This document shows positions 9,605 through 62,593 of a stretch of DNA of 64,000 nucleotides, one piece after another (within the stretch, counting starts at the first letter, position 1; each line of letters begins with the position of its first letter). The notes under the pieces were generated by a model. The model had not been told where the DNA came from, ran no database searches, and saw only the letters and a list, made by a program, of their open reading frames with translations. The stretch covers positions 620,001 through 684,000 of the forward strand of contig JBPGPT010000005.1 in NCBI GenBank assembly GCA_051047955.1. The letters run 5' to 3'. The translations under genes and the position numbers were made by a program. The stretch is from Cystobasidiomycetes sp. EMM_F5 (taxonomy: Eukaryota).

Positions 9605-10600
9605 ATGGCTAGACTGCAACAAGCTGCTCTCCTCGCAGGACTGACGTTGACCGGTGAGATAACACTCGAAATTCAAAAAGAAAGCTGAGAATCGCAGGTC
9701 TGACAATGTTTCACTCACTCAACAGGTCGTGCATACGCGTACAACTGCTACTACGATGTGCGTTGACCTCGCTGCAAGAGCTTCAGACCTTCCTGCACCG
9801 CCACGTTTGGCTCGCTGACGATTGACTTGCTGCAGGTTTACAACAACTACGTCTGCGATGGACTGACGTACGGTGCAAGGACCGGTATCGCTGCTGCAAT
9901 CAGTGAGTCTTCCTATCCATCCTTCCCTCTCCGCTGGCAATGCTCCGCAGAGCTTCCCCGTCGTCCAGCTCAAAAAGGCTTGGCTTTCGGCACAAAAAAA
10001 GCCAAAAGCGGTGATGTGGACGCCCATCGCCAGAAGCACGACGACGGGGAGACTTTGAGTGTTTGCTGGCCCACTCTAAGAGAGCTGCTCCGTTGGTCAC
10101 ATTACTGACACGTTCTCTCTCACCTTCTTACAGTCATTGTCGTATGTCTGCTTCTTGGAGGTGTTCTCTTCGTTCGAAGAAGGCGGATGCAAAGGCTGCA
10201 GATGCAAGCAGCTCAGCAGGGGTTACAAACCAATACCAATACCAACCTTCCCCCGTCTGGCTACTACCAGCAGCCGTATGGAGCTCCGGGAGCAGCCGGT
10301 CAACCACAGCCGGGGTACTATGGCGCACCGCAGCCTCAGGGTCAGTACTACTACGGACCTGATGCAGGCAACTGGCAAGCTCCTCCTCAATACGAAGCTC
10401 CTCCCGCGACAAAGGGACCGCAGAATAGAAACAGCGATGCTACTGTCGTAGGGGACGGTCCAGCCGTCGAAGACGTCAACACCAAACCAGCATCGGCTAA
10501 TTACTATGGCATGAGCGGTCACGAACAGTGGAGTGGCAATGTCCAATCGTATCCTGCCCCTCAAGGTCCGCCGCCAACCGATAATACTCATCGCGTCTAG
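9605..10600 (+). CDS. Small single-pass membrane protein, RCR (Congo red resistance)-like, with PY motif (4 exons)
   Basis: Spliced MARLQQAALLAGLTLT|GRAYAYNCYYD|VYNNYVCDGLTYGARTGIAAAI|IIVVCLLLGGVLFVRRRRMQ...: signal peptide, two-Cys ectodomain, TM helix, RRRR stop-transfer, and a Gln/Pro/Tyr-rich tail with APPQY. Confidence 0.7.
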
Positions 10601-10997
10601 ATCCACATGAAGATTCTACATATCCCTGTCGACTCGAATTCAAGATGAAAGTTTTGCAAGTCGTAGCTCCGTCTGTACATATGCCGTCTCCGCGGCCGCA
10701 GTAAATAAGATTGAAGTGGGTGTTGCAGAAACAGACAACATGCTCTACATGTACAGAGGTATCGAATACAAACACAATTAACACGATTTGCGATGTAGAC
10801 TTAGCTTTCTGCATTGACTAGCTTCACTTATCAACTTGACCACCTTACGCCGTCCGATTTCCACTTATCCCATAAATGCCCACTAATCGAAACTGATTAC
10901 TGAGATTTTTGTAGATGACTCAACCACTACGACTTTCTCTTTATTACCTGTCTATGCCAAGCGCTACGGATCGCCGATGACGCCCTCCCTTTGAAAG

Positions 10998-12233
10998 TTA
11001 ATAGAAGCGTCGCGGAATGACACCGCGCTTTCGTAGACGGTATAGATACAGGAGGCCTGCTGCTGCTCCACCAAGGTGAGCTGCAGCTCCATAAAGCCCA
11101 TCCTGCGGGAGAAAGTCTGTATCAGCGGCAGTATGCGGGGCATACGAGACACGACCTTACAGGATATGCAAGTGTGTAAAACAGATCGAATGACATTATA
11201 CCTCCCACAGCCAGCCAAGCTGGAGCTGGCAAGACGAAGAAAAGGAGTATTGTGTTGCGTGGAAAAGCTCCCGCAAAGAAAGCCAGAACACCGTAGATCG
11301 CACCGGACGCGCCGACACCCCATGCGTGCCTGCGAGCATCGCTGGCGCTTGCCGTTGGCAGCTTGCTGATAAGATATGTGACACTGCCAGCCAATCCTGC
11401 TGTCAAGTACAGCCCTATGGACTGAGTCACTGTGAGTATACTGAACGCCGAGGGTGCTGCATGCCAACATTCGTCAGTTTGCTCCCTCCTGTTTTGGGAA
11501 TACCATGTCGATTGAGCTTACCTAGGAATGCCATCGTCAGCATGTTGAACAGAATGTGCTGGGAGTCCTTGTGCGAGAAACAGGACGTCAACAGCGTCTG
11601 TGACATGCCAGATACATGTATTAGCCTTGCCAGCACTCGGGCTAGGGAAAAGTCGCTTTTAACAGGCATACCCAGGGTCGCGTTACGTTCGCCCAGGACA
11701 CAGTAAAGTTTTCATACATGAACTGAAAGAGCTTTGCGTCGCCGAATCTGTCAAAACACCTTAGCAAAAGCCTGTAATACTTGTCGATAAAGCAAGCTGC
11801 CCTACCTCTCGTACACTGATTGACTGTAAGTCCATGCTCCGAAGACCAGTGTATTCAAGCCAATGATTGCGTAAACGACCCAGTCTTTGGGAAATCTTCT
11901 GTTCACTATGTCGCGCCAACGCTTGATGGTGCCTTGCGGGCCGGGTCGAGATGCAGGTGTGGGATAGGGATTTGCGCGAGCTTTACCATATGGTGACGAG
12001 AACAGACTGCGTAGTGAAGTTGTGGAGAACGGACGATAGGATTGCGATGAGGACCGTAGCGGCTTCAAGGAGATCTTCAAGGCCGGTTGGATTTTGAAAC
12101 CAGTCCGACATGTTGAAAAGAAGAATGACCCAAGCGGTCTCCCAGCATGTCGACATGACTTTGTCCTGATACTAGCCTCGCGGAATGGCCCAAATTCATG
12201 CGACAGGCGCCCCAGGAGCCGGTTCATGTTCAT
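10998..12233 (-). CDS. Rhomboid intramembrane serine protease, PARL/Pcp1-like (copy 1)
   Basis: Arg/Ser-rich presequence; RPW|TLLTSCFSH..HILFNM; GVGASGAIYG (catalytic Ser); last exon DGLYGAAAHLGGAAAG (catalytic His), ending IPRRFY*. Confidence 0.85.
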
Positions 12234-12697
12234 CCTTTCCCACTGACGCTAGGACGGCACCAGTCTGACTTCCTTGTCGACTGTTAAAGGATACCTATAT
12301 CGTGTCGGCAGGCTGTCCTACTTGAAGTGGACTCTTTTCAGAATGGGTGAAAAAGAGATACTTGGCATATGGAGCAATATACAGCATTGACGCCACAACG
12401 AAATGCCTTTAGTATTGCAATCCAACACGCAACGTCCTGCAGATCTAGCGATCGGATTGTTAACGTCGTCTTATTCCGCTCCTGAGCCCCAGGCTTGGCC
12501 ATTAATATTTCCGCCAATCCGCTGGCACTTTTCCTGCACCAATTCCTTCCCAGAAAGGCTTTGCGAAACCATTATAAGCATCTTGTTTGCGCAAAGCGAA
12601 GAAAAGCATGCATCATATTCACAATAAGACGGAGAAGGAGTACAAGTTTGACTTGAAGATGCACATAACATATGGGAATTGACAAAGAGGCTATGGA

Positions 12698-14078
12698 TCA
12701 CAGTGGCCTCGTGACAACATCCTTGCGAGCAGTGCAAGATTTGCACATCGTTCGCTGCTGTCGTCGCTTCATTATAAGCCTCGACCGGAGTGCTGAAATC
12801 CTTTGCCTCAGGGCCGGATTTTGGCTCCCATCGGACAAGTGCCTCCTCATCCTGTCTTGCAGCAGTCTCAAATTCCGATGCAATACCCCTCGTGATTGCA
12901 ATACGACGAATGCGAGGGTTCCAGTGAGTGCACCGCCAACGTGAGCGGCATGGCCGATCCTAGCTTCCTGCGAGCGACACACTGATTCAGTAGCGCACTA
13001 GTTTCAAAAGCCTTCGATATTACTGGCATAGTGCGGGCTTTATAGCCCTCCGATATCAATTGAGCGGCCAGAAGGGACCACGGTAAAAGTGCAGAGCCAA
13101 CCATAGGTGATAATCGTTTTGCTAGAACCGCGGCCGAAAAAGCCATGATACCTAACACCGCACCAGAGGCGCCCACGAACAGAAACGGCTGGTTGCCGAG
13201 CGTAGGGTCGATGTAACGTGTGTTGTTGATCAGAGCGGCTAGATTTCCTGCAATCCCTGATCCCACATATACAGAAAGGTACTGTGAATTCGTGAGAACC
13301 CTGAAGGCCATAGGAGCTTTTGCAGCCACATTTTCAATACCAATATGCTGCAGTCTGATGGGAGGCTTACATAAAACTGCTAATAGGAACATGTTGCAGG
13401 CAAGGTGTTGCATGTCTATATGCGATAGACAACTTGTCACGATGGACTGCATGATGGATCATCAGCTTCTTCCCGAGCGTTGCCAGATGGTGAACTTGCC
13501 CAAGGGTGCGAATCGAGGAGACTTTCAGACATAGCTTTGCGCTTGAATAAGGCAAGATTGTACAGACAGAACAGTCCAATCGACTCGATCTTGGTCCTGT
13601 GAAATTGACAAGCAAGAGTGAGCGTTGTATTCAGATGCTTCAGCTTACCGTACTCTTTGTATATCGCATTGAGAAGAAGCCACAAGGCGAAAACCATGCA
13701 GTTGATGGCCAAAATAGAGAGTAAAATCGTGCCCGGCGAAGCCTTGTTGATGTGGTCCGCCGCTCGTTTGAGGCCGCACTCGCCGAGGCTGATCTTCCAC
13801 GGTTCGCTGTTCGCTTTCGAAGAAATGGGTTTGGGAAAAGGAATCGACGGTCGTGCCCATTGTGTAATATGGGATATCCCCGGAACAGGCGACGGAAGAG
13901 TGCGCAATTTAGCGAAGCGAGCCCTTGCTGCGCTGACGAGTTCACTGTCCTTTACATGGCGGAAGGTGGAGAACGACACGGTGGAGGGATAAGTGAGCGG
14001 AAGCTGTGAGCGGAGTCCTATCCTCAACACCCTGCAGGTGTTTGTTCCGAGGACGAGTCGGTCTAGAACGCGCTTCAT
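12698..14078 (-). CDS. Rhomboid intramembrane serine protease, PARL/Pcp1-like (copy 2, divergent)
   Basis: Presequence-like N-terminus; VTSCLSH...HLACNM; FVGASGAVLG; EARIGHAAHVGGALTG; basic C-terminal tail. Confidence 0.8.
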
Positions 14079-14484
14079 AATTGGATCTCGGCTTGGCTGT
14101 CTTGTCGTTCTTCAGCTTACAGAAGATGAAACTCACGTTAAGTAGGTAATCTCAGTAACATCGTACGAAAGAACCGTGCTCGAAAGCGTCAAAGAATGAA
14201 AAGATTACGGAGCTGGAATGTAAAGACCTGGCTACCGAAGTGAGGGGATCCGTGCGATATACAATGCTGCATATTATGCCTCCACAGGATAATATTTTCT
14301 TTGTCCAAACGATGGTGCTTTTCGGCTGAGAGGGTCAGTGTAAAGAGAAAAGACGGATCGAAGCGCAGGGTATCCTCGCTCATCGCAGAACCGACCGTTG
14401 TCTGAGGGTCTGTGCGCCGCCACGGCATGAAAGGCTTGAACGAATCACATTGCATGTCTATTGATATGGGTATGGACAGAATCA

Positions 14485-17400
14485 TCAGTACTCGATATCC
14501 AGACTGGCCCGGGTGCCGGAAGTACTGCTCGAATCAGCTCGATGTAGGCGCCTCGACGATGCCAGCCTGCGCTTTGCCTTCTCGACAGGTGGCAATGGGT
14601 CCTTTCCTTGTCGATAATCTGGTTCTTCACCAGCAGGCAATGAAGATGTTCTTTGTCGCCTGCTGGGCGTTGCTGGCGACTGAGGCCCGGCAAGCGCTGC
14701 CGAATTTGATGAAGACGACCTCCGACGGTGGTGGGAAACCGGCGGTCGCGACATTGGTGATATTGGAGACTGTACAGATGGCGATGTATAGCTGTCAGAC
14801 CTAGGAGGTGCGGAGTTTGGCGGCGCTTCTAAGCGATATTCATTTAGATTGTCAACTTTCGCAGATCTCGCAGCTGCAGAGCGCTCCATGTCCCGTTTAA
14901 TGTCAGAGAGGACAGAGCTTGGTGAAGACATCGGAGCATATCCGTTTCGAGATTGTGTCTGCAGAAATGAAAAAGTTATACAGGGATACAAAAAAGGAAC
15001 AGAGTCAACATTGCACTCACTTCGTCAACAGACATCGTTTGGCGAGATGAACGAGGACCCCGAGCGATGGAGATGTTGCCCATGCTAGTTTCGAGAAACT
15101 TGTCGTCCTCTTCCACTTCAGCCGGATGATTATCTTCCTCGGACGAGAAGACCGCATCGGGCAATTTGCCGTTACGCGACCTAACAGCTCGAATTCCGCG
15201 GGTGTTGTTCGTCTGCTGACCACCGACTCTGTACATTCCGAGGGTATGGGCAGATCCAGCACGCGAATGAGACGGCTGGCGCATCATGTGCGTTGGCGAC
15301 GGACTGCGTGAACGTTGTATAGACATCGGTATTCCGCTAGTCAGACTGTTGTCGAGATCCGTCCCGTTTCTCATGCTCGCAGGAAGCCCTGCAAGTCCTG
15401 CATTTGATGACCGGCGAGATACGGACGGCGAAATGTTGAGTGTTTCGGAAGTTGCGCTAGCTCGACGTGCCGAACTCGATAGCAAGAGCGGCTTTGGACC
15501 ATTGGATGGTCGCCTTTCTGATACTACTGAAGTTGGAGTGCCATAGCCAAGACTTGCCTGGCCGCTGCTCGGAGATAGAAACCTGCCCGTAGAGGCCGTA
15601 GGTGGCGTAAATGGAGGGTCATGAGAGGGGCTTGGTGGGCGTATCGCAGTCTTTGCGCTTCCGGCTACAGTATTGACACGAGCGGAAACATCTGAGCGCA
15701 ACTTGAAGATGGTCGAAGGCGCAGACTCTTTCCACTGCAATGCAGCAATATATCCATTTGTCGTGGCTTTACTGAGGGAGGCTGCAGCATCACTCTGCGC
15801 CAGTGTCGAGGCGTACTTTCCGAGCATTGCACTTGCTGCAGCAGGTGAGTAGTTGACTGACGTACGCTTGCTTGGTGACAAAGGAGTCCCTGAAGGCGTG
15901 TGTGCGGAATGCGCTTTGGCTGGCGTGTGGATCGAGGTTTCTGATGGCACATCTTCAGGCAGTTCTTTCGAAGGTGATCGCCAAAATCGGCTTTTGAAGG
16001 CTTTAGCAGCGCTACTCTCCGCTGCGGCACTTAGCATATTTTTGGCAGATTGTAGGCCTGTACTAGCTACGCTGGTGCCTGGTTGAGCAGTATCTTCAAA
16101 GCCGTCGTTCGGAGCTGCAGGAGAGTTTGGTACAGACGAATACGACGCGATATTGAGGCCAGTCAACGAGCCCGTTATCCGCCGTTCCCGTATTGAAAAA
16201 GCCACAGCCAAAGGGACTTGTATATCGTCACATACATAATTTTGGAGCATTTGTAGACAAGAAGAGAACTGGAGTATGCGCGATTAAATCATTTTGTATT
16301 CACAGGCTTCAAACTTTGTAGTGAAGATACTCACATTCGAAGAAAGCAGCTCCCGCCGCTTCATGAGGACAATAGCACAACAAAAGTCGAGAACGAAACC
16401 TTTGGCGGATGGTCCTTCTAACGTGCCTGCTTCGCGCCTCGTCGGTGTATGTATATTATCGGTCGCCTGCTCCAAAAGGGCAAAGATCATGTCCCAGATC
16501 TGCACCAAATCCGGGATCGGTACTTCCATAGCGAACAGAGTTGTAATCCACCTCAAAGCATAAAATGTTCTTTGAGCAGAACGCGACAGATTCAGCTCGG
16601 ATGAAGCAAACCAACGTGCCCATAAACATACGGTTGGATCTCTTTCTGGCGATGTAAGCTATAGGCTAGCTCCGCATCCAGCCAGTGCAGCTCTTGCGCA
16701 TAAGCCCTCAAGGTCGCACCGAGACCAGTACGCGATTGTCCTGTTTGACTGGACGTGTTATTCCAGGAGGTATCGGGCAGTTGCAGCAGTGCACCGTCGC
16801 TGTCCTGGACAAAAAAGTCGCCAAACTCGGCCATGAGGGAAGAGAATGCCCAGAACGTATCTTCTTCTGCGTACATAGCTTCTTGAGACTGGCTGCTCGA
16901 GTCGGACGGTATACTAGGCGAGTGCGCAAAGACGTAATATAGTGGGGCGGCTAGCTCGCTCATGCCTTGTACATAGTGTACAGGGTTTAGAAGAGCAAAT
17001 ATGTATAGTATGCGAATAAGACATTCGAAATGACGATCCGCTTGTATCGAATCGGCCGTGTCGTCGCCGTATGATGCGGGAAAGCGCTCTTCAATCTCTT
17101 TCCGCCTATGCGGGTGCATGCGGTCGAGTCTGTCGAATATATTCCGTCGATATGGTATCGACACAATGGACGAAGTTGCATGATTGTGCCATGGCGCATG
17201 CTGCGAAAAGAAGGCATAAGAAGTCTGGGTCCGTCGAACATCCTTGTCTATATCGTCCAGCCAGACGTCCTGTTGCGGTCTGCGAGCTGGCTCGTCCTGC
17301 ATTCACAAAGCCATGACTTCATTCAGGCGGAATATAACGAAATACGTCAATGCATCCCACATACCGGCTGGACTTGCTCATCGGCAGCCAACAGCTCGCG

Positions 17401-17658: not shown

Positions 17659-17993
17659 GTTGAGTCCAAAGAGCAAGCCTAGACGAGACTACCGACGAGC
17701 ATTAACGCGGGCATATTACAGACAGTATAACATGAGCATATGGTTGCATTGTTGATTTATTTGAATGAAATTAAAAGGACCCATTAGCGCGCAGGTTGAA
17801 CGCCGTCTGACCAGACTTCAACTCGCGACTTCCAGCACAAAGCAGACTTGGACGCAGAGTAGGCTTACGATTCCAACAAACGACGGGCAACAGGCTGCAC
17901 CACTTCTTCTGAGCCACGGGCAGCCAGCTGTTTGCTCGCTCTGACAAAGGAATACCCTGCCAACACTGCTCGGCGATATCGACGCACAAAGCC

Positions 17994-19605
17994 ATGTTCA
18001 GGTCTCGGAAAGCCAGAAAGGACGAGACTGAGGATGAAGTAGCAGCAGAGATGAGGGAGAAGAAGAAGTGGAGCAGAAGGCCAGCCAGTGAGCTTCGCTG
18101 TGTCGAATGGGTTGGCTCCCGGATCTCAGAGTCGCGACCGAGCGATGACAGTCCAGATCCGGGATGCTGGCCTGTAAATTGGCTTGCAGCATTTAAGCTG
18201 ACTCCTGTACACTACCTGCGACGATTTTCTACTCTGCTCAAAGATACGGCCTTTAAACAGCGTAAGTCGCATGCTCAATATCGTTATGCCGCCGCGTTGC
18301 TGACTGGCCCCGAATCACGTAATACGAAATCGCAGAACGTCTCAAGGCATGGCAGCCAATCCTAACGCCAAAGACAGTCCTCCCAACATTCTTCATTATC
18401 GGAATCATCTTTGCGCCTATCGGAGGAGTCCTGCTCTGGGCCAGCAGTAAAGTCTCGGAGTTTACCATCAGTTACACCGACTGCGAGTTTACGGCTCCCA
18501 ACACCACGTTTGGCGACCTACCTTCGTCAGCGTATACGTACTCTGTTTCGGGATCGAGCGATATACCCATTGTCGCGCCGCAGTGGACCTTTACGACGAC
18601 CAATGATGCAAACACCCCAGCGCGCCTGCGTTCAGTGTGCACTTTGCGCTTTACCGTCCCAAAGACGCTCGACTCTAGCGTATTCATGTACTACAAGCTG
18701 ACGAACTACTTTCAAAACCATCGTCGATACGTAAAGAGCTACAACTCCGACCAGCTCAAGGGGGTAGCTAAATCGGCAAGCGATCTCAACTCGGATGGTC
18801 TATGCAAGCCTCTAGATCAGAATGCTCAAGGTCAACCAATCTACCCATGCGGACTCATCGCCAACAGCGTCTTCAATGGTAATTTCGCCTGTGCCATTGT
18901 CTGACTGCGAAGCTGACTGCCTACTCACCTTTCCAGATACGTACGATCAGCCGAGACTTATTCAAACATCTAGCAATGCTGCCGTAAGTCAGACGTACAA
19001 CATGACGGACCGCGGTATCACCTGGCCGGGCGAAGCGTCAAAATATGGCAATACAACCTATCAGCCGGGACAAGCTGTCCCTCCACCCTTCTGGGCACTG
19101 CGCTACCCAAACAACTACACCCAGGCTGGATCGTACCCCGACTTGGCGTCCGACGAGCATTTCCAGGTCTGGATGCGTACGGCTGGACTGCCCACGTTCC
19201 GGAAACTATACTATCGCAACGACAATGAAGCTATGCAAGCCGGTCGTTATGAAATGCGCATATTCATGAGTGCGTTGTGTAGCCTTCTGCCATTGCTTAT
19301 TGCAGCTGATGCAGAGCGTTATCAGACTACCCTGTCGCTCAGTTCGGAGGAACCAAATCCATCGTCTTCAGCACGGTATCTTTCATTGGCGGCAAGAACT
19401 CTTTCCTCGGTATCGCCTACATTGTCGTAGCAGGTATCTGCGTTCTTCTCGGCCTGCTCTTGACTTTGAGACACCTAATCAAGCCGCGCAAACTCGGTGA
19501 TATGAGATATTTGAGGTGTGTCGTAACCACAACCATATTCTTCCGCTTTAGAGCTAAGACTTTGTGTACTAATGTAGCTGGAATCGCGAGCAAAAGACAA
19601 AGTAG
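17994..19605 (+). CDS. CDC50: CDC50/LEM3 family P4-ATPase flippase beta subunit
   Basis: [94 protein letters not shown]. Confidence 0.95.
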
Positions 19606-22758: not shown

Positions 22759-23766
22759 ATGATACAAACAGCAGTCGCAAGGTCTGCTCGTGTTGGCGCC
22801 AGAGGCATCGTGCTCTCGTCGTCGTCTGCAAGAAGGGCAGCAGTCGCAGCAGCTCCAGCTGGACTGAGGCAGACCTACGCAACAGCTCAGATCTCGCCAA
22901 CGTCGACGCAGCCATCGCATGCTACACCTGGCGCACCCGTAAAGGCCGACAAGCTCCCTTCGCTCGGCTCTGTCAGTCCATAAACTTGTCCGCCAGAGCG
23001 TTTCTCGAGCAGCGAGATTGGATCACTCAATCTCGCGCGCTTCCGGAATGAAACGGTGGAATAGCAAAGCACATCTGGACAAGAGCTGACGTGGTGTACA
23101 TGTGCTGCAGATTGAGGCTTCGTGGGTCTCGCTGCCCCGTCCCGAGCAGGAGCGAATCTACAGCGAACTGCAGGAGCTGCAAAAGAAAGACTGGAAAGAG
23201 CTGAGCTTGGACGAGAAGAAAGCTTGTACGCGCAAACCATCATAAATCGTACCCAGTACACTGCAGCTGACTGCTATGCTACTCCGCAGCCTATTACATT
23301 GCATATGGACCTCATGGACCCCGGGCTCCTATCGTTCCAGCCGGCAGCGGACTGCAGGTCATCATGGGATCTTTGGTCTGCTTCCTCTTCGCCGGTGGCA
23401 TATTCGCTCTCGTACGATCTCGATGTCAGTGTTGCACCTTTTACCGATGCACCTATGCTTTCGCTGACGGTATTTTACTGGTCTCGCCGTCTGCTCAATT
23501 CGATCGCCCCGCTTCCTCCGGCTCGTCTGGCTTCGGTCGCTCATCATACATATGCATTGGGTACAGCACTGGAAACACCAAAGACGATGACAAAGGAGTG
23601 GAAGGAGGCTCAAAACGAGTACGCGAAAGAGCAGAAGATGGACCCGTAAGTTGCGCTCGATCTGAACGCCATACTGGGCAACCTTGTTGAGTTTCCCTAT
23701 TCCTGCAGTTTCACCGGGGCAAGCAGGCCAGATGGCAAGGGCAAGAGATTCGAGACAAGTATCTAA
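22759..23766 (+). CDS. COX5: Cytochrome c oxidase subunit IV (yeast Cox5), 5 exons
   Basis: Mitochondrial presequence; IEASWVSLP...LQELQKKDWKELSLDEKKA|AYYIAYGPHGPR; TM helix; PKTMTKEWKEAQNEY..EQKMDP|FTG. Confidence 0.92.
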
Positions 23767-32692: not shown

Positions 32693-33469
32693 CTACATCA
32701 ACGCCATTATAGTATTGACTATATCCCTGTCATTATCTTTGAGGCCCTTGATGGCTCTTGCGCGACTCGAGTTTGTCTGCTGCATGACTGTTTTTATATC
32801 CCCCTCGTCAAGATCGCCCGCATCCGCATCCGCATCATCGTCTGGATCAGCGTTGTCGTCGTCGTCCTTCTTTGCCTCATCATCGTCAACACCTTCGAAA
32901 GGATCTATGGCGTTTCCTGCATCTGTAGATCGTCCAGCAGCTTTGGCTTGACGTTCCATTTCAGCTTTGTGTCGAGCCTCGGTCGCTTGCGCAGCCGCAA
33001 CAGCTTGTTGACTGAATCCAGTTGTTGAGTTGGGATCTTCGACCTTAGCCTGATTGGTGTATGGATATTCAGCAAAGTGCTCCTGCAAACACTGAATCCA
33101 AACCTACCTCGCCAAAAACGATGTAGCAATCAGAATGGGCCGACTTGTACACTTCTGGTTTAGATACGATGAAGAGAACCTGCAGAAATGTTGACATACG
33201 TCAGCATCATGTTTTGTGAATCATGCGGACGAGTTTCCACAGGTCTTTTCGAAATAGTTATGCACCGCAAACGCCGGCGTAATGACAAGTCTCGGCCGCA
33301 GGGCGTACAAATACAAGCAACTTACGCCTTGAGGTCTGCGCAGGACTACGCGGTTGATGCCTTCTACCTTGCGTAAGCCCAGCTTGGCGAGGGTTTGGCG
33401 ACTCTTCTTTTCGAGTCTGGGCAACAAACGGCCCTCTTCTGTCGCCAAGATTGCGTCTGTGTCTGCCAT
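32693..33469 (-). CDS. EGD2: Nascent polypeptide-associated complex alpha subunit (3 exons)
   Basis: [56 protein letters not shown] and a C-terminal UBA ([34 protein letters not shown]). Confidence 0.9.
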
Positions 33470-33702: not shown

Positions 33703-34636
<934 letters not shown>

Positions 34637-43518: not shown

Positions 43519-44282
43519 ATGGGCAACTCACATAGCACCATAGGCTTGATGGGCAGCGATGACGTCGTGCTCGAAGTCATCAGCGGGTGCGGCAAGCGTC
43601 CATCAACAATCACCAATGTTGCTACCGGGGAAGTCGTGTATACCACAGTCCTGGAGAAGCCTGGTCTACTGAAATCCAATATCCTACATGTCCATGGCGG
43701 CAGTCACGGTCAATCTCAAACTCCGTTTGCTTCCCTGCATGGCACCAGCACCGTGCAATTTCACATGGATGTTGGACAGGCAGCGGCAGACATGCAGCAA
43801 AGGAACTTCCTCTTCAAGGTTGGAGGCATGTTTTCAGGGTAGGTACCATCACCATCTCCGCTTTCAGTGGCTCATACGTTGCACCTAGTCGAAATCGCTT
43901 CATTGCACGAAGCGAGACATGGCGTTTTGCACGAGCTGGGAATTCCATAACGGTAAGTTCAGCAAACTAGATCCACTTGTCCGGGCTGAAGTGGCCGTGT
44001 CCATCACAGCTCTATCCGCCTTCAGCTGTATCACCGATCGCCATCTTTACGTACGTACCTGTCGGGTTGAGGTCGCCTGTAAAGCGCAGCATTCGCATCC
44101 TGCAAGACGGTAACGTGACGAGCGGAAGCGACAAGAAGTCTAGATATGCACTGTACGAGTATGGCAAGCCAACAGCGTACTTGGACATTACAATTGTTGC
44201 TGAGCTTCTTTGGCGCCGTTGGGATGCTGGATGGGAAGGTACGGATGGAATGGGAGGAGAGATACTTGTAGTGTCCGGATAG
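43519..44282 (+). CDS. Uncharacterised protein with N-myristoylation motif (tandem paralog A, 3 exons)
   Basis: MGNSHS start; colinear with the 44647-45438 paralog, with the same two intron positions. Confidence 0.8.
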
Positions 44283-44646
44283 AAGTTGCGAATCATTCCG
44301 TCTCGCTGAGTACTGTATTGTATCTCGTATGTCACAAAATTTGGTTGGTGACAAGTATGATTCCCCCTTTTCCACCAAGTAATGCGACCAAACTTGCTTC
44401 TTTGTCTCCGCAAAAGCTGTGCCGGCATGTACGTGGGGGACATTATGCTCGATGGAGTAATATGATACATAGCTGGTGCTTGGCATGACATAGGGAGAAC
44501 GTGACGACTCTAGCCGTTAACGTTCACGGTTTGCATGACGCCCGCTATGTTGGACGCAACCGAGCGGACCCGAGACCAAATCTTAGCGCTGGCCTCTTCT
44601 GACGTCCACGCAGTACAATCATGCTTGTCTTCGCATCTTTCGCATC

Positions 44647-45438
44647 ATGGGCAATTCCCACAGCATTGAACGCTTACAGAGCGAGGGTGATATCGTCCTC
44701 GATGTCGTCAGCGGCAAAGGCAAAGAACCTTCCACTTTCACCAACCTCGCTACCGGTGAAGTCCTGTACACCACAGTTCTAGAGAAATTCCCTGGACTGC
44801 TCAAGTCCCGACATCTGCACCTCAATGGTGGCAGTCATGGTCAACTTGATACTCCGTACGCAACCTTGTATGGCTCGAATACCATAGGATTCCACATGGA
44901 CGTCGGGCAGGCGGCAGCAGAGATGCAGCAGCGCAACTTCCTGTTCAGAAGGGGTAGCATAATGACCGGGTACATTCCATCACCCCGTTCGAAAACGTCT
45001 GAAACACTGATTTGTTCCGTCTAGACGAAATTACTTCATTGCGCGAAACGAGACATGGAGATTCCAGCGCGCTGGCAAATCTATTCTGGTGTGTAGTCTG
45101 GATTCCACTTCGATATCATGCTCCTGACACCACTGTCACAGCTCTTCGCGCCATCAGACGTGACTCCAAGCGCCGTCTTTACGTACAGCGCCGCCTGTCT
45201 TACACACAGGTCGGTACAGCGCACAATCCGCATACTCGAAAGCGGTATCGTCGGCAGCGGCACCGACAAGAAGTCTCGGTACGCTCTCTTCGAGCACGGA
45301 AGACCCACGGCCTACCTAGACATTGCTATTATTGCCGAGATCCTCTGGCGCCGCTGGGATGCTCGCGCTGAAGGTGGAGACGGCATGGGAGGTGAAACCC
45401 TTCAAGTAGCGCCGGCAGTAGCAGTAGCAGTGAACTAG
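44647..45438 (+). CDS. Uncharacterised protein with N-myristoylation motif (tandem paralog B, 3 exons)
   Basis: MGNSHS start; shares ATGEV.YTTVLEK, GGSHGQ, FHMDVGQAAA.MQQRNFLF, DKKSRYAL.E.G.PTAYLDI and LWRRWDA with paralog A. Confidence 0.8.
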
Positions 45439-52303: not shown

Positions 52304-54836
52304 ATGACTTCACGCTCGACACGCCGGACGGTGAAGCTGCTGGCTGTTCTGGCTATAACGCTGCAGGTCATTCTGCCAGCCAACGCGCATGAGCACCACC
52401 ATAGCCATGACGCTCCACCAGCGCCAGTCCAAGTCTACAATACTTCTTTCTCGGCCAGCGAGCCGTATGATGACGCTGCGAGGGCGGCAGCAGTCTCAGC
52501 CATGCTAGCAGCTGCACGGAAAGCAAGGGATGACAGCGAGGAGGGCCACGAGCATCAGCATCATCACCATCACGGCAGCGAACCCAAGATTATGCTCAAC
52601 GAGGTAAGTCTTTGCTCTTTTTGCCAGACACCTGTCATAAACGCCACCCTCGGCCAAACGGAAAGCTTCGGCGATAACGTATTCTCAACCAAATAAAGCC
52701 ATATGGAGCTGGCTCACAAATGTATATAACGTATTCATGCATACTGATGCTTGGTCTGCTTCGGCGTCACTTTCCTACAGACCGAATACGAGCTTCAGCA
52801 TGGTCCAATCGCCCCGTCATACTACGCCCTGGACAGCGGGAGTCCAGACGTTCAGCAGCTCTCCGTCATGTACGGTTCGCATTCAGGTCTCATGGTAACG
52901 CACATAGCGTCCATGGTTCTCGCATTCTTTGTCTTTCTGCCCATTTGTGAGCTCACATACCGCAGCAGATCCAACCGGCCATATTCTAACGAGGAAGCCC
53001 GACTCTTGCAGTCATCTTTGTCAAGATTGCAAAGCATACCTTCCTATCCGCATGTTCACAGCTCCTCCTTCTCACAACTCTGGCTGTTGGGCTCCTGTCG
53101 GGAATGGCATATTCAGCTGCTACGCCCGAGCTGTACGATGGACAAAAGCACGGCAAGCTGGGTTGGATCACATCTCTATCAGTCATTGCCCTATCGTCTG
53201 CCCAAATCTTCAGGACGCTATCGCACATGCTCAACAGCAAAAATGGGGATTCTTTCAAGGATCGCTTGCTTTCGCTGAGGTCGTCAGCGGCTTCGACTAG
53301 TGCGCAGTACGGTCCCGTTGGCGCAGGGGTCGTACAAAACGACGAGGAGCGAGGACCTCGAATTTCCAGTGCTAGTACGCACGTCAATGAGGATGCATCA
53401 CAGCGTAGTGGACGAGAAGACTCGGATTCTAGCTACTGGACGCGGCACGATTCTTCTGATCCCAGACACTTCAGCAGAGACAACTCGCTCTCCTCTTCTG
53501 ATTTCCGTCCTTCGACATCCATTCCCAGGCATCCAGAAACCACACGCTGGCATGGCCACGATTCATCCAATTCTGAACGATATGGTATGGTCACGTCGCC
53601 CGTCTCGGAGGTAACACTCAATGGCGAGTCGGATTATGACGATACAACGCGTTACAAGCATGCACGGCAGGAGTCTGAACCTTATGAGAAGCCCTTGCGG
53701 TCGTCGAGTTTTGATCGGCCACAATACCGTGCTTCGAAATGGGCAACAACGCTCAAGTACGCTGAGATATTCGCATGGCGAGCCTTGGTCCCCTTAGGTT
53801 GGGCGAACCTGGTAACGGGAATAGTGGTGTATGGCGGCACCTGCAGAGCCGAGGCGGATTTCAAGGTATTTTACGTTTGGGTCATGCATCTCGGCTGAGA
53901 TATATCGCTGATAAATTGTCAATACTCTAATCTGTCTTAGAATGCATGTCTCGCTCATCATATAAAGGGCTCCATCTTCTTCTGGTATGGTATTCTATAT
54001 TTCGGTCGCTATCTAGGTGCATGGGCGGAACTAGGCTGGGCATGGAACAAGAAACCGTCGTCCACTCGGGGGACATGGAGAGAGCACTTACCCTCGGCTG
54101 AAATGGCAGAGTGCTCTCTTCTGTGTCTCTATGGCGCTATCAATACGTGGATGGAACGATTGGGTGTCGGCCCTAATGACCCTTTTACGGTGCATCAGAT
54201 TCAGCACATCTCCATTGCAGTCATGTTTTTCTTTGGTGGTGGTCTGGGTATGATGTGCGTATTTTGCAGGCAAGGTTGATTGAGTGATCTTTTCGCTGAC
54301 ATCTCGGACTGCTTCCTCGTCGCTCTGGTGACAGGCTTGAAAGCAAGACGGTCCGCTCATGGATAAGCGATAGCGTTCTACAGAGAGTCGACGAGCGGAG
54401 AGCCACTGCTCCGACATCTTATTCCGGTTCCTTTAACGTCTTTCCCGCTCTCATCATCGGCATCACTGGCCTGGCGATGAGCGCGCACGAGCAAGAATAC
54501 GCATTCTCAATGACGATACATTCGCTTTGGGGACGTCTGCTTGCTCTCGCAGCAGTATGTCGCGTTCTCACCTATACCTTCCTTTTCCTTCGACCGCCCG
54601 CATCCATACTGCCTTCAAGACCACCGACGGAAGCCCTCACAGCCTTCTTCCTCTCGGCAGGAGGAATCGTATTTATGCTATCGTCTGACGAAGTCATCTT
54701 TTGGGCTCTTCGGAACGGCATGGACAGCGTTATGGCCTTTGCAAACGCTACCGTCGCATTCGTCTGCTTTGTCTTTATGTTTGTGTTTGTGCTCATGGGT
54801 CTCAAGGGGTGGGCTAGCCGGCGTGCAGCAAAATAG
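52304..54836 (+). CDS. YTP1/DUF2427 (YCR061W-like) polytopic membrane protein
   Basis: Signal peptide followed by HEHH; HIASMVLAF; PELYDGQKHGKLGW; CLAHHIKGSIFFWYG; GRYLGAWAELGWAWN; IQHISIAVMF; MSAHEQ; LPSRPPTEAL. Confidence 0.85.
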
Positions 54837-55393
54837 TGGTCGCTGTCCGTCTATGTGGCAGTAGTCAACCGGAGGAGTACCCGCTGTGCATCTCTTCGAT
54901 GCTGAAATACGGCAAATTGTGAGCGCGCGTCAGCATCGCAAACAATGCAAGTCGCAGCAAACGCAGCATCAATCTTCCCATATGATAGAAGAAATCAATA
55001 AGCAAGAATACCTAAACACCTACTATCGTTACTCGTTCCTAGGTAGCATATTTAAGTCATAACTCATTCGAAAGTCGTTTAATCAACATTTCCCCGTATA
55101 TTTTCATGTCCATGCATAGAACGCTAGTACCGACGCCTAATATGTTGTTGACAAGACGTATTAATTGCGATTACATGGTAGTTACGGAATTGCGGATGAC
55201 GGGTTGAATGTCGACAGTGTTTTGACTCGTCCTGATCTTCACGTAACGATTCTTGCCGCCATCGTCATAGTGGAGCACATTATTTGCGGAGACGTTGTGG
55301 CAAAAGGCGGATTGTCGCGCACAAGGCAGAGTCCCAGCTCTGTTGATCCTGTACCGCTCAGCTGTACGCCATACTGCACCCATCACACTCATC

Positions 55394-55821
55394 ATGTCTT
55401 CCGATCCAGCACTCAAGCCTGAAGGACCACTAGACAAATTGACTGGCTCGCTCAGCACGTCTACAAATCAAGGTCCCGGCATATTCAAGGAAGGATGGGC
55501 TGGTACAGCTGAGACTGGCAAAGCTGGCGGAGAACCTGGTGATACGCGCTATGTGAAGAACCCGGTGACTGCTGAGACTGCTTGTAAGCGTCCGTACTGG
55601 CCGCACCGGACTTTAGCTGCGTCATCAGCCAGGGGCAGCAAGCTCATCTAAATCTTGTTTTAACTTCAATACTGTAGCCGGCAAAGGATCTGGTAGCTCT
55701 ACGGAGAATGACGAGAGATCCACCATGGAGAGTATCAAGTGTGTTGGATACGGTCGACCTAAATGCTGACCAGTACTGAACGAGGCAAAACATCACCAGG
55801 AACAAGCTATCAGGTCATTAG
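55394..55821 (+). CDS. Small Gly/Ser/Thr-rich hydrophilin-like protein, 90 aa (3 exons)
   Basis: Exons 55394-55583, 55678-55738 and 55800-55821 total 273 nt and read MSSDPALKPEG...STMESIKNKLSGH*. Confidence 0.6.
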
Positions 55822-56039
55822 TTGGGACGTGTGGTCACATGTTAGCACAGAATGCTTAACACGGAATCTTCTGGATACAGCGTTGAAGTGTATGTTGAAT
55901 TGCCCACACTTAAATATCATTTAAAACCCGCCAGTATAGACTGCGCAGAATCCCAGGTATGCTCCTGACGGCAAAGAGTAGCATTGGAATTCCGAAGAGA
56001 GTATAGCAGCGACCAATGCCGTATCCACACGGACGTGTA

Positions 56040-56064
56040 GCTGTCACGGCTGTCACGGCTGTCA
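56040..56064. repeat. Short tandem repeat, (GCTGTCACG) about 2.8 copies
   Basis: gctgtcacggctgtcacggctgtca. Confidence 0.7.
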
Positions 56065-56878
56065 TTCTGGAACTAACCAGGCTTTGCTCAATTGGCAGTC
56101 GTGCCGCGAATACGGTAACTTTGCAAAGCAGATTTCCCGCAGCCTTTGCCCGTTCCTTTCTGCTTAGACAGTTGCCGTCTATTCCCGACCGCGAACAAGT
56201 TCAGATACTGTACAGTGACGATCCTGAGGCCGATCAGAAGCCGAGACCAGCTGGCTTGGGGCACACTGCCAGCCCACAATAATGCTTAAGTGAGGATTGT
56301 TTGCATTATCCTCGAATGGCCGTTGCCTGTTCTCGAACAGGCGTTGAGCGCGCCAGTCTATGATTCTGCATTCTGCAAACAAGAATCGACGTCATTTCCA
56401 AGGTGTTTAAACTGCGAGCGGCGCACGCTTGCAAAGGCTGAAACCGTCGAGACAGAATAATACTCAAATTGCAAACCCCGTAGAGTGTCCGCATCAGCCT
56501 AGCTGGCTGGCGGAGCTCCGGCAACCCGCAACAGTGTCGGGATCAGGCGCAGTTTTCGGAAATCCCGAAACAGACGCTTGTAAGTCTGTCGTTTTGGGTC
56601 GTCAGAGGAGACACAGGCGTAGATCGCATGCTCCACTCATGTAGTTGGTGCAGCGCGCATCCTGCGGAGGGCGACGCGTCTCGCCCTAGTCAATGGACTC
56701 CAGGATGCGAGCGAAATGGTCAGCAGTTTGCTGACATTGTGAACACCATTCCCTTCTCCCTGCGCTCTCTCGACTGTTCGATAACACACCTGCATATACC
56801 TGCCCGTCGTCTACGCATCTGAACCTCGACAAACATTATCAGCTGACATATCGGCCTATCAAAATGCCAGTTTCGCAG

Positions 56879-59095
56879 CCTCCGGAAATGCGATAGCAGG
56901 CGGGCATCAGTCGTCGACACAGGCTCATTCTACATACTCCGGCATCGACCGACCTCCTGCATTGCATAATATTAAGAGAGAACCAGACGAATCGTCGTTT
57001 GCGTTTCATCGAGGCGACGTAAGGCATCCTGGAATCGCAGCCAGTTCCAACTTTATAAGCGACCGTAAAGAACCGCTACAGCACCACGGTACATGGGACG
57101 TCAACAGCATACCGCCTTCAGCCAATTATCAAACGTATCCTAACACATTTCTCGATGTCAATTGGTATCCCTCCTCACCTGGGCGGCCGTATGTAGATTC
57201 AGTCTCCCCGGTCGGAGGCTCATCAGCTCCCAGTCAATGGCCAAGTGAGATATATGGTACAGATAGCTACACAAATCAATTCTATAGCAATCCTTCTGCT
57301 GGCTCTGCCGGTTCCGCGTTTGCACAAGGCTCGCACTCCGAGTGGGTGCAACAAGGTCCATCGCATTCAAGGATACAGAACTTTGCAAACCAGACTCCAC
57401 TGAAGGATGAAGCTGTACAGTCGCCCACATTTCAGCCTGTACAGTCAGCGCACTGGCCGCCTTGGAGCCGCAGTGGCGAGGAAATGGTCTTCGAATCCGC
57501 TCCATCGGAATTTCACTCTTCTTCACAGGCATACACCAGTCCTGTCAAGTCTAGTGGGTATAGCCAGCGGATAATCACACATCGCGACTCTTCCATACTG
57601 CCGGATGCTAGCGTAATTCGACAAAGGCTAGAAGGTCGCTCAGCTGTACACGATCTTCCAGCAACCTCATATCAGTCAGAACAACACCAACATTCGCAGC
57701 TGTTTCTGCCCCCTCTTCCAAGCGAAAGCGCAATGCCTGTCGACGACTTTCGTGCCTATCACGCGCACCACTCAAGTCTTCCCCGGGCTACAGCAGAGCC
57801 GCAGATGCCAACATCCCTCGCTAGTCCGTCCGACCCGTCAAGAGACCATACTTCGCTGAATCAACGCCGCTTACAAAGTAACGTGCTGTCCTTGTCACCT
57901 ATGTTGACCGAGCAGAATGCACCAAGACGGATACCCATCGAGTACGTTTGTTCCATTATCTGTGAAAAGTGTCAAAATCTGACACACGCCATGACGATGC
58001 TTTCTCTACCTACCGTCGCTGGCTACTGCTACTGCGTAGTCTGCGTGCACCGAGACATCCCGACTCTCCTCGAACCGCACTTCGACGCGCAGTTGAGCGA
58101 GAGCTGCCATCAAACGCCTCCGCCGAAACCGTTGTGAACGCTACTGAAGCAAGATGGGACGAACTGTCATCGAGTGATTGTAAGATGCTACAAATCCACT
58201 ATACTGCCGGTGAGTCGACGATGGCGGTACTCTGCAGAGCTAGCTGCTCCCAAGTGATGTACTTTTTCGATCATGGCTAACATGTCCCACTCTTGTAGCC
58301 CTGGATGCATATGAACAGGACATGCGAGCGTATGTCCACACGGAGGCGTGTAGCGAGTACCTGTCTCTTCTCGAACGGCAGGCTCTGTATACACAAACGG
58401 AATATGTGAACCCGTATGCTTCCTACTATAGTCCGAACGATGATTCGCCCGTCAGCGCAGAAGAGAGGGTGACTACACCTGTGGCTTCAGCCAGCGCAAA
58501 GAAACCACAGCCGAAGGAGGGGACCATCAAGCAGCGAGGCGTGTCCAGTCAATCTGGCAGTAGCGCTAGTGCTGGCGCCAAACGTCGCAAGCCTAAAGCC
58601 GAGTGAGCTCTACAGCCATGTCTAGTCGGAATAAGATCATGTCATAACGTCTCTACCCCGATACAGTATCAACGCCCCGGTCAAGCCTTTCAGCGCCTAC
58701 GTCAAATTTGGCCGTGATATGCGACATAATATGCAAGAAAACGGCGATGCGTCATTCAGTGAAATCAGTAAGGCTATCGGCGAGGCTTGGCGAGCCATGC
58801 CGCCATACGAGAAAGAGGTGAATTATTTTCGTACCGTGCTTCGTTCGGCTATAAGTTTACACTCGTTACTTCATCCTTTACAGCAATTACTCGATCAGGC
58901 TGAAGAGGGTATGTAGTTAGCGATCGCGGCTGGTGCCAATGACACCTCGATACTAATTCGCGGGCTTTGAATTCTAAAACAGCCAAAATGAATTATCGTA
59001 AAGCCCTCAAGGAGTACAGATCGACGGACGCCCACCAATCGTATCAACAATATCTTCAAGCCCTGGAGGACAATACGCAAGAACGAAAACCCTAG
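56879..59095 (+). CDS. HMG-box transcription/chromatin factor (one canonical box plus one degenerate box); true start not resolved
   Basis: KAD|INAPVKPFSAYVKF...SFSEISKAIGEAWRAMPPYEKE|QLLDQAEE|AKMNYRKALKEY; upstream degenerate box D|LRAPRHPDSP...EARWDELS. Confidence 0.8.
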
Positions 59096-59470
59096 TGCGA
59101 CGCGAATACATATGCAATCCTTGCTATGTTTTCGTGGCGTGACCAGTCTCATTATGTTCTGTGTCGTGTTATTTAGTCGTTTGTAATTGTATCTTTTGAT
59201 CTTATGTCTAATTTAGTGGGAGGATGTTTAGTCCACGTATAGTTCGACAGGCGAAGTCGTGACACTTACGTTCAGATGTAAAGTATTCGGCAGACACGTA
59301 GGTGAAAGTCGACGCAGAATGAAGGTTGTTTGTAGATGAACAAGCTACATTTGGTACATTGCAAAGCTGCTACTTCAAGGCTGCCTGCTGCCCACGCAAT
59401 ATCTCAATTCCTTGTTTTGCTTGCAAAAAGAGAAAGAAGCGAGTACTGCTTCGTGCAGGAATATACCTCG

Positions 59471-62102
59471 TCATTCCTCTAGATGACGGTAAAAGAATGA
59501 GAAATTCTCCTTTCTCCGTTGTGCCCAGCTTCCCTCGAAATCAAAGTACAGATAGACTCCCTGTTCATATTCGTCCGTAATTGTCGCTGGCTCGTTCGCT
59601 CGCTGAAACCAGGTTAGGTATTGCTTGTGAAATCGCCACGACTGCTTTTTGAGTTCCTGTGCCGCAAGATACTGCATGTACGTGCCCTGGCAGTAGTAAA
59701 AGATATAGAAGAGCGTCTCCACGTCAAACTTGGCGATCAGTGCTGGATTCGCTAGATGAGGGGAAGGCTGTTGCGGGTAATATGCAGGCGTAGGGAAGGG
59801 ATTGCGGGGAATGTAGTATTTCGGTCTGCGAACAGTACCCAATAGCACACATGAGAGGGAGAGCGCCAGCGGTATAGTACGCTGCAGTCATTACTTACTT
59901 GTCTGCATCTGACGGTTGCGGAATGTTGGAGTAGCCGGCATCTAGTATCTCATGCACTGCACTTAGGTCATTATCCCTGTTCAAAGCTTTTATTGTACGC
60001 GCAGCAATCAGTTTCTGTCCTCCCGGTGAAAAGGGGCTCAGTAATTTACACTTCTGCTTTGCGCTCTCAAATGTCGTGACGAGGTCAGCCAAGCTGCTGG
60101 GCAACCTCGTCTCTGTCGATGGCTGATCAGCGCGCTGTTGATTGGATACGCTTGGTGATGCTCTAGACGAAGGTACAGCCTCCTTCGCGAGTGATGATGG
60201 GGTCGTTGACCGATCAGATTGAGCAGCAGCAGTGACGCTTTCGGATGCTTGGTGAACTGATAGCAGGGCGTTGTGTGGCGGCGGAGAAGCTGTGCTGAGC
60301 TTTGGACTAGCAAACGTGGGCGATGTCACACTGTGCAAGCCGCTCGCAGCAGATTGCTAATTACCCATTGTGCAGGATGATGTGAAAATAGATGGCGAGG
60401 GAGCGAAACGTCAGCGTGGACTCGTCGTGGTCATCTTCTTGCCTTACCGGTACGGACGCGTAGCTAGGTGCCGGACTTGGCGCAACATCGCTGATCAATG
60501 TTGCCGGTGCAGCCTTTGGAGCGGGTGTAGGTGACAACGCATCAGCAGGCGCTTGCGAAGCCTGAGACAAGGTTGAAGTCGGCGGGATAGTCGAAGTTGG
60601 GGATGTGATGGTTGCCGGAGCGATTGCCGTAGGCGTAGAAGCTGCAGTAGTTTGATTATTTGCGGAAGAGGGAGCGATAGAGCTGCCTGCTGTTGCTGCT
60701 GGTGATGCTGCAGCTGCAGCTTGAGGAAGTGCGACTGCAGACGCAGCTGCAGCGGCGTATCGTATTGGCGGTAGTACAGCTGGCACTCTGGTCGTTGTCG
60801 TTGTCGTTGTAGCTGATGAAGAAGGTTGAGAACCGCTCAAGGCGCGCGTCGGACCAGACAGGCCTGTCGGACGTTGGGCAGTACCGTCCAACGTCGGTTT
60901 CCGCTGTCCAGTGGTTGATGTCTTTGTCTTTGTCGCTGTCGGACTCTTTTCTCCTCCTTCTTCGGGTGTAGCTGTCGATGCGAGGGGAAGGGCAGGTGCA
61001 TCCTTTGCCGTTGAGGCTGACGACGATCTCTCGGGAGGTTTCACACTCTTTGCAGGCGTCCTTATCGGAGGCGCAATGGGAGGGGTGAGTTCTGAAGTAT
61101 CGGCGACCGACATGCTGTCGTGCGAAGAAAGGACATCGTCTCGCTCGCCCATTCCAAACGCTTCCTCTTGTTCGTCCAGATTCAACTCGTCGTATATCCC
61201 TTCGTCCTCTTCAAAATCTTCTTCGGTATTGCTTTCGACAAAGTAGCTTATATCCTCCTTGAGCGTCTGCACGCGATCCGGGTCGAGGTTGCCATTCTCT
61301 AAAAGGCGTAGGATGAGTTCCAATTTCGAAACGTGCCATTTCCTGCGCTCATTCATATCTTCGAGCTGTGCTACCCTATCCCCGTTCGCCTTTGCATCCT
61401 TTTTACTCTTCTTTGCGCCCCCTTGCAATTGCTCGACCTCTGCTTCAGTCACCTCGAGCTGCCGTGATAGCTCGTCGACCATGTTTGATATAAACGACGA
61501 CGTCTCCACCTTGAGCGCTTCCTTCGGGTCGAGCTTTGTTCCAGCGTTGAGCCCTTCTTTGGAAAATGCCTTTGTTTTCATTTCCTTTTCGCAGGCCTTG
61601 AAGCGTTCCATTTGCTGATATGGCGGGATTGAGAAGGGTCAGAGAGGTGCAGAGTATACACGTACTCGGCGGCATGGGTCGACCTACCTGCTCAATCAGC
61701 TTTCGATTATCCGTCAGCGCCTTCTTGTCCTTTATTTCGTTTGACGCGAGCCATGTCTTTATCTGATCGCGTAGTCGTTGGAGCTTCTTTATCTGGGTCT
61801 TGAGCTCTGCTTCCACTGCGCAAAAATGTCATTGCGGATTGCCATTTCAGCCGCTAAGACATGGGCCTCGGAGTCCCCAGCTTGCAGACCACCACTCACA
61901 CTTCTCCTTGTGAGCCACATTTGTCGTCGCCTGTATCTTCTTGTACTGCTCATCAAACTGCTCCACCCCCTCTGCTACCCTCTTCAAGACCCGGTCCACT
62001 TCGGCTGAATATCAGGTTTCGAATTCGAATTTCCAGTCAGCCATTTGCAGAGTATGCCTGTGTGATACTGCATCCCTCACTCTGCAGCTTGCGTGCAGCC
62101 AT
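59471..62102 (-). CDS. NOT3: CCR4-NOT complex subunit Not3/Not5
   Basis: [59 protein letters not shown] box [31 protein letters not shown]. Confidence 0.95.
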
Positions 62103-62593
62103 CCTGTCGTCGCCGCGCCCTTCGTGGTCAGGATGTCACAGGTTGCCAGTTGGATTGAGCAGAGAATACAAGGCAAACACGCGTCGGAAGGTAGTACAAA
62201 TGGAGAGTGGTTTGGGATCCAGCTGCATTACACATAAGCACTAGTACAACACACGTATCGACGTATATTATATACAAGGCAGCCTGACTTATGGCACCTT
62301 GGTTACTAATGGTACTGTTGATATACTCTTGACCCGCCGTTGTATAATCAGACAGACAACGTCCATTGTCTCGGTATTTGGACATTATACAACCACATTT
62401 ACAGCCCTCGCAGCACTTACCTGTTTGAATCCCAATTATCCAAAATCCAATCCGCCACTGATTTCTTCAAACTCGAGAGATCAGATCTGGCCCCGGCCTT
62501 GGAATCCGACAGACACTAAAGAAGGTCGAGCGAGCACATCGACGGCACTACAACACATCACACACACGGGAATACTGCACGCACACTGCAACC

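Follow-up and report, generated by a model that had tools for sequence, protein, structure and literature searches.

Does a long intron in an intron-rich fungus have to be folded back to normal length before it can be spliced? This question is raised by 64,000 nucleotides (nt) of the 18.3-Mb genome of Cystobasidiomycetes sp. EMM_F5, a basidiomycete yeast of the Pucciniomycotina (contig JBPGPT010000005.1, positions 620,001 to 684,000; hereafter the window). One near-identical database protein is labelled Cystobasidiomycetes at class level. The original prediction for the window listed long introns with inverted repeats between the donor and the branch point, and proposed a strict effective intron length under which long introns survive only with a selected donor-to-branch stem. 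Our results point to a different explanation. What is fixed in these introns is the span from donor to branch point, not total length; the distance from branch point to acceptor is free, and is kept free of AG. Long introns are a mixed and mostly unstructured group, and a minority of them, exemplified by introns of CDC50, COX5 and a gene labelled RCR-like, seems to carry zipper-like hairpins. We regard this account, with span-defined introns and a first-AG acceptor, as probable, with real room for doubt.

Fixed and free dimensions of the introns

Introns were called from sequence alone with a self-trained generalised hidden Markov model, which represents the three signals (donor, branch point and acceptor) and both distances explicitly and has no term for structure; calls with a posterior of at least 0.8 count as confident. 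The sample covers 1.054 Mb, namely the window and 99 genome stretches of 10 kb, spread out. It yields 1,661 confident introns with a median length of 59 nt, and the observation that most introns in the window measure 50–75 nt is borne out by 79 of its 93 confident calls.

The donor-to-branch distance lies within 30–55 nt in 96.6% of the 1,661 introns (5th–95th percentile 35–52 nt). A model-free check on 845 donors finds 5–10 GTRAGT-to-RCTRAY pairs per nt at separations of 35–49 nt, against a background of about 1.5. Among the 57 introns of at least 100 nt, the span is below 58 nt in 31 and at least 85 nt in 23; roughly 400 long-span introns are expected across the genome. The 43 introns in which branch point and acceptor are at least 45 nt apart contain 8 AG where 105–137 are expected, next to 110 GA, and 39 of the 43 are AG-free in this part; frame constraints alone would still allow about two in three of them. 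Our structure test folds the donor-to-branch segment and compares it with dinucleotide shuffles as a z-score. Folded in turn, the long branch-to-acceptor segments are unstructured (mean z +0.08, 2 of 45 segments below -2), and they are mildly pyrimidine-rich, mostly 0.5–0.7. One of the long introns in the window, which the original prediction did not list, is the following:

23425..23566, + strand: COX5 intron 3, 142 nt, branch-point A at 23467, span 42 nt

This intron runs for 99 nt without an AG past its branch point and is unstructured (z +2.3). Its spliced product reads LVRSR-SLETPKTMTKEW, and the read-through translation of a relative (P0122) can be reconciled with this donor and spacing. 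Long AG-free branch-to-acceptor stretches with distant branch points are known as AG exclusion zones, and the stretches seen here resemble them.

From these dimensions we infer that introns would be defined across the narrow donor-to-branch span of about 35–50 nt and that, as far as can be judged from sequence, scanning would settle on the first AG past the branch point as the acceptor. A narrow span together with first-AG choice would leave most introns at about 59 nt. Long introns, a few percent of the total, would then come in three classes. The larger part would have a normal donor-branch span and a long AG-free, unstructured stretch ahead of the acceptor. A smaller part, often first introns, would have a truly long span, mostly without a selected stem; first introns make up 12 of 22 long-span introns vs 318 of 1,453 short ones (p 0.0009). 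Such introns might be spliced through weak generic folding, strong signals or simply at lower efficiency. The third class, a minority, would consist of introns with a stable donor-to-branch hairpin, such as those of CDC50, COX5 and the RCR-like gene.

The sample is rich in microexons, with a length of at most 30 nt in 99 of 1,181 internal exons, so that some long calls could conceal two introns. Small GTPase and ubiquitin-conjugating genes (L108, L114, L115, L116, L118, L120, L121) contain many microexons of about 7–25 nt. Most branch-to-acceptor stretches are unstructured, and 2 of the 45 have a strong stem, like the downstream stems of yeast (PMC12350175). One is a predicted 113-nt intron at L023:5046-5158 (+), whose donor-branch span of 39 is normal and whose near-perfect hairpin past the branch point (z about -4) conceals two AGs and one GTAAGT. 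Folding would bring its branch point and acceptor, 73 nt apart in sequence, to a distance close to the genome-wide median of 18, and this intron is our best candidate for a downstream stem. The other is a 98-nt intron in an HMG-labelled gene (window 57942-58039, +), where a 57-nt AG-free branch-to-acceptor stretch holds a 9-bp stem (z -3.0). A 160-nt intron at L072:7528-7687 (-) consists largely of a CACT tetranucleotide repeat.

Structured introns of CDC50, COX5 and the RCR-like gene

The original prediction ascribed near-perfect inverted repeats to six long introns or candidates, and the stems exceed chance in three of them:

18088..18243, + strand: CDC50 intron 1, 156 nt; branch-point A at 18201; stem core 18109-18126/18155-18173, outer helices to about 18097/18195
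22972..23110, + strand: COX5 (Pfam COX4) intron 1, 139 nt; branch-point A at 23089; hairpin core 23007-23021/23027-23042
9903..10133, + strand: intron 3 of the RCR-like gene, a small membrane-protein gene, 231 nt; branch-point A at 10108; core stem 9933-9965/10040-10070 with branched interior

Stems were scored under two geometries. One is that of yeast zipper stems as given in PMC12350175 (a stem of at least 6 bp that starts at least 10 nt past the donor and ends at least 20 nt ahead of the branch point, with linkers totalling 42–85 nt), and the other follows the native span.

CDC50 is the best zipper-like case and the best substrate for a reporter. The intron is confirmed by homologues: the spliced WSRRPA-NTAFKQQRL agrees with P0001 and P0003–P0007, and the best named CDC50 relatives are Pucciniomycotina with 60–65% identity. 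Its position is old: a distant fungus, represented by metagenome locus L107, has this base interrupted by an intron of 76 nt. The metagenome scan with the CDC50 exon gave 7 loci, mostly transcripts or distant species and none a close genomic relative. The donor-to-branch segment folds with z -4.5 and contains a perfect stem of 10 bp (p 0.003); the fold of the whole intron is matched by 5 of 200 shuffles. With linkers of 21+28 = 49 nt, within the native span, the zipper score has p 0.003 under both geometries. The intron folds far better on the transcribed strand than on the antisense strand (-47.5 vs -33.1 kcal/mol, z -4.0 vs -2.0), with G-U in 9 of 35 pairs, as expected of structure at the RNA level.

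COX5 intron 1 is confirmed by its spliced product, PSLGS-IEASW, as in P0123; the closest named match of COX5 comes from a Cyphobasidiales species. The fold reaches z -3.4 with a perfect stem of 9 bp (p 0.013) and is matched over the whole intron by 3 of 200 shuffles. Linkers measure 35+47, the zipper score has p 0.053 and the minimum free energy p 0.003. An alternative outer pair of 7 bp joins 22985-22991 and 23077-23083.

The label RCR-like comes from the original prediction, and the gene has no Pfam match; the single protein retrieved as a homologue (134 aa) leaves the intron uncovered. The 231-nt intron is likely to be real, on the strength of splice signals and a continuous helix rather than of homology. 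Its donor scores 5.6 vs -0.9 for an in-frame rival at 10059, which would give a 75-nt intron and 52 extra codons and falls below the 5th percentile of donors (2.8), and removal of the 231 nt yields one continuous hydrophobic helix. The segment folds with z -2.35 (p 0.023), or -2.39 (p 0.01) once the branch point is corrected and 400 shuffles are used. Its longest perfect stem, 11 bp, occurs in 0 of 300 shuffles, and 1 of 200 matches the whole-intron fold. In general the whole-intron folds point the same way as those of the donor-to-branch segments, but less strongly. Linkers are 30+38, and the zipper score has p 0.008 under the geometry of PMC12350175 only.

Zipper stems are established for introns of Saccharomyces cerevisiae of the RPS17B type (PMC12350175, PMC2536676; mentioned in PMC2911113), where they are given for 32 of 88 long introns (PMC12350175). 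The likeness lies in a donor-to-branch stem in a long intron, in the absence of a common primary sequence and in the restriction to some long introns; CDC50, RCR-like and COX5 all fall within the published geometry. Unlike here, the yeast class as a whole beats shuffles. The host here is an intron-rich basidiomycete with 59-nt introns, and its stems are predicted from folding of the sequence. A literature search on zipper-type stems in introns of Cryptococcus, Cystobasidiomycetes and Pucciniomycotina returned nothing relevant, with most subscription journals and supplements outside its coverage. Zipper-like stems are a fair reading for the three introns, which makes them candidates for three new members of an established kind. 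If the hairpins form in vivo, we infer that they would aid splicing, probably by helping U1-U2 pairing like the yeast stems.

Could the three hairpins have arisen by chance or as neutral by-products, for instance when an old local inverted duplication made the intron longer, and play no part in splicing, in a window picked for their clustering? Shuffled DNA yields about 70 hairpins per Mb at the level of CDC50 and RCR-like (score about 20), only mildly fewer than real DNA (68 vs 100, both strands), and 5.4% of short introns reach z -2. There is no class-wide excess, and the RCR-like and COX5 introns are strand-symmetric. CDC50 is harder to accommodate, with z -4 to -4.5 and sense-biased, G-U-rich outer helices. 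Stems that lie wholly between donor and branch point also argue against neutrality, as does the concentration of cases, since 3 of 6 long-span candidates in the window are structured vs 2 of 19 outside (Fisher p 0.07). We hold a neutral origin to be unlikely, yet worth taking seriously. Within the account of span-defined introns, the window would be a local excess of the hairpin class, helped by the choice of a striking window.

The CDC50 intron is 3n and stop-free, so that retention preserves the frame, and the in-frame rival donor of the RCR-like gene at 10059 lies inside the 3' arm of the stem (10040-10070). Predicted folds can also mask donor and branch site. All this would suit hairpins that are regulatory switches, tuning CDC50 retention or RCR-like donor choice (52 extra residues each) or binding a protein. 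Such a role is highly improbable given the weakness of the rival donor, the length of COX5 intron 1 (3n+1) and the absence of the 52-residue CDC50 insertion from all eight homologue N-termini inspected. Very doubtful, too, is a version with a near-hard span limit, in which hidden in-frame long introns (CDC50, RCR-like) would use the sense-strand hairpin as a splice-or-retain switch. If it were true, the folded form with a span of about 49–68 nt would lead to removal of the intron, and the melted form would give 52 extra codons and escape from nonsense-mediated decay. CDC50 retention and the rival donor of the RCR-like gene (9903-10058) each add exactly 156 nt, or 52 codons, in frame and with no sequence likeness, which is probably a coincidence. 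Both introns mislead an ab initio gene finder.

Terminal-like inverted repeats might also suggest mobile insertions (introner-like elements or MITEs), stwintrons or hosts of small RNAs, and because microexons are common, some long calls may conceal two introns. Internal inverted repeats are indeed shared with ascomycete introner-like elements and sister stwintrons. Introner-like elements, however, are multi-copy families at new positions, whereas here each structured intron is single-copy in the genome (the lack of a match does not prove rarity) and CDC50 sits at a position common to a distant fungus. The earlier observation that the long introns share no primary sequence stands, as only matches of 14–23 nt (E 0.02–0.05) were found among 60 long introns. 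As for stwintrons, 28 long introns contain 0 inner donors vs 2.8 expected and 1 proximal branch-plus-AG vs 2.6 expected, in a count that stops short of full nested decomposition. No Rfam match was found in the window or 15 other loci, where divergent fungal small nucleolar RNAs (snoRNAs) can be missed, and long introns contain no box C, in a scan that left out H/ACA motifs. The introner, stwintron and snoRNA-host readings are disfavoured, and we give them next to no credence.

Long introns without a selected stem

The remaining candidates in the window behave differently from the three structured introns:

33180..33325, - strand: EGD2 (NAC alpha) intron 1, 146 nt; branch-point A at 33201; 9-of-10 stem 33291-33300/33224-33233
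52604..52780, + strand: YTP1-like intron 1, 177 nt; branch-point A at 52747; posterior 0.99; weak DUF2427 match downstream
56580..56870, + strand: HMG candidate, about 290 nt; alternatively a 74-nt intron 56580-56653, an exon and a 152-nt intron 56719-56870
62104..62420, - strand: candidate intron(s) in the NOT3 5' region; strong donor 62420; acceptors 62315, 62223, 62104

EGD2 was a positive example in the original prediction, and its intron is real, as the NAC profile continues across it (1-29 / 31-53). It fails as an example of a stem. The fold is at chance (z +1.0; 134 of 200 shuffles fold as well over the whole intron), the 9-of-10 stem has p 0.17–0.24, the longest perfect stem is 5 bp, and a repeat search of the intron found 0 inverted pairs. 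The stem falls within the zipper geometry, with linkers of 25+23 = 48 nt, but is not above shuffles. The YTP1 intron is unstructured (z +1.4), in line with the earlier remark that it lacks a stem. No reading of the HMG candidate folds above chance, the 291-nt form having z -0.75 and a 9-bp stem with p 0.15. For NOT3 there are at least four possible forms (106, 151, 198 and 317 nt), whose overall folding is that of chance (z +0.3, -1.05, +1.0 and -0.1); the region holds a perfect AT-rich 10-bp repeat (62339-62348/62384-62393) seen in 0–3% of 60 shuffles. Hence the long introns of the window are real for CDC50, COX5 and EGD2 by homology, for YTP1 by its posterior and for the RCR-like gene by signals only, while the HMG and NOT3 candidates are unverified.

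Two general arguments for folding back to normal length do not survive comparison with shuffles. Stems of 7 bp with G-U pairs are present in 82–97% of shuffles, and any stem of score at least 6 under the zipper geometry in 76–100%; since shuffles yield stems too, the geometry alone does not discriminate. Subtraction of the folded part was said to leave an effective length of about 40–75 nt. The folded paths measure 25, 21, 39, 16, 37 and 23 vs shuffle means of 23–36, and because shuffles collapse equally far, the argument carries no weight. A short distance between the ends is a generic property of folded RNA (PMC6193969).

Outside the window, 19 introns with long spans were called. Their mean z is -0.23 (standard deviation 1.19; Wilcoxon p 0.42), with 2 at or below -2 and 3 with p at or below 0.05. 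Without 4 introns for which a proximal branch point is the likelier one, the mean of the remaining 15 is -0.19; 21 introns with spans of 58–84 average +0.03. Zipper scores are not enriched across the 19 as a class under either geometry (Fisher p 0.42 and 0.26). In 3 of 23 long-span introns a Pfam check found contiguous profile positions in both flanking exons (EGD2, L063, L027), the remainder having short exons or no family. The 292-nt kinase intron at L063 has z -0.3 and the 304-nt carbamoyl-phosphate synthase intron at L027 z -1.5; a further profile-confirmed long intron (L113) is unstructured or not significant. We chose 16 further stretches by eye from gaps in the Ras, UBC and kinase profile tables; those for the proteasome and for carriers yielded none. 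Most are two or more normal introns around microexons and one is a coding insert. Five single introns of 94–115 nt among them, with boundaries partly by eye, are unstructured (z +0.03, +1.38, +0.43, -1.15 and -0.08). Outside the window, the strongest structure in any long intron is that of a 310-nt intron of a 14-3-3 gene at L091:953-1262 (+), with z -2.4 to -2.5, several separate hairpins and no single zipper.

Starting from strong local hairpins instead of introns, we found no enrichment of those flanked by a donor and by a branch point with acceptor (59/66, 19/22 and 9/8 observed/expected at three thresholds). The RCR-like and CDC50 introns pass the hairpin filter, so that a genome with the density of the window would show about 30 additional cases per Mb, which is excluded. 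All hidden in-frame candidates with a signal score of at least 9 were also rated by zipper score. Scores of at least 15 were reached by 1 of 259 and by 5 of 174 of the hidden candidates and by 0 of 21 called long introns, vs 1.6% of the decoys (900 antisense, 900 intergenic); two of the five are one alanine-rich coding palindrome.

What remains of the strict rule proposed by the original prediction? It can point to the very narrow donor-branch span, to the three significantly structured introns among six in the window and to the weak EGD2 stem, whose 48 nt of linker lie inside the native span. It also has a precedent, as the same rule has been proposed in print for Giardia, Spironucleus and Trichomonas, where introns are uniformly short and longer ones are predicted to fold back to short length (PMC6679479). 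Most long introns are said to fold there, unlike the majority of those in this fungus, in which total length is not the fixed quantity. With the long-span introns outside the window at chance, the outcome named beforehand as refuting the rule, profile-confirmed long introns unstructured or not significant, no excess of hairpins between donor and branch point and few high zipper scores among called introns and hidden candidates, a fold-to-normal-length rule for the whole genome has largely been refuted computationally. We consider it very improbable.

Other hairpins and genes were noted along the way. At L060:7311-7420 (+), upstream of a gene, good donor, branch-point and acceptor signals surround an intergenic hairpin (z -4.3, linkers 15+22), possibly a structured 5'UTR intron. 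Near-perfect intergenic hairpins lie at L042:6223-6266 (-), with about 20 bp and a 4-nt loop, and at L007:7439-7515 (+), with about 19 bp. The window also contains two neighbouring look-alike gene pairs, apparent tandem duplicates, at 11000-13860 (-) and 43519-45438 (+). The first pair we take to be rhomboid-like open frames from their motifs, and both genes of the second pair begin MGNSHS.

Strength and meaning of the zipper-like stems

Several results weigh against our preferred account of span-defined introns with a hairpin-bearing minority. First, there is some circularity in the results on span and AG-free stretches, since the model learns both features and favours them, and calls other than the profile-checked introns are ab initio, without RNA confirmation. 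Second, the model missed two of the three structured introns in the window (RCR-like and CDC50), also with a relaxed length prior; both are in-frame, and long introns that preserve the frame thus lie in a blind spot of the model. A handful of hidden structured introns per Mb would be compatible with the scan that started from hairpins. Third, 3 of 23 model-called long-span introns reach z -2, vs 5.4% of short introns (p 0.12), which is not significant, so that even the case for any selected minority depends chiefly on CDC50 and COX5. Fourth, COX5 and RCR-like fold about equally on both strands. Finally, with exon flanks included, the predicted folds pair the donor and the branch site themselves (0.67–0.93), a poor fit to a purely helping role.

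If an intron-rich fungus did obey a strict fold-to-fit rule, the span limit of the spliceosome would become directly measurable, but our genome sample does not show such a rule. What remains are three candidate zipper-stem introns outside the budding yeasts, and a clear distinction between the dimension of an intron that is fixed and the one that is free.

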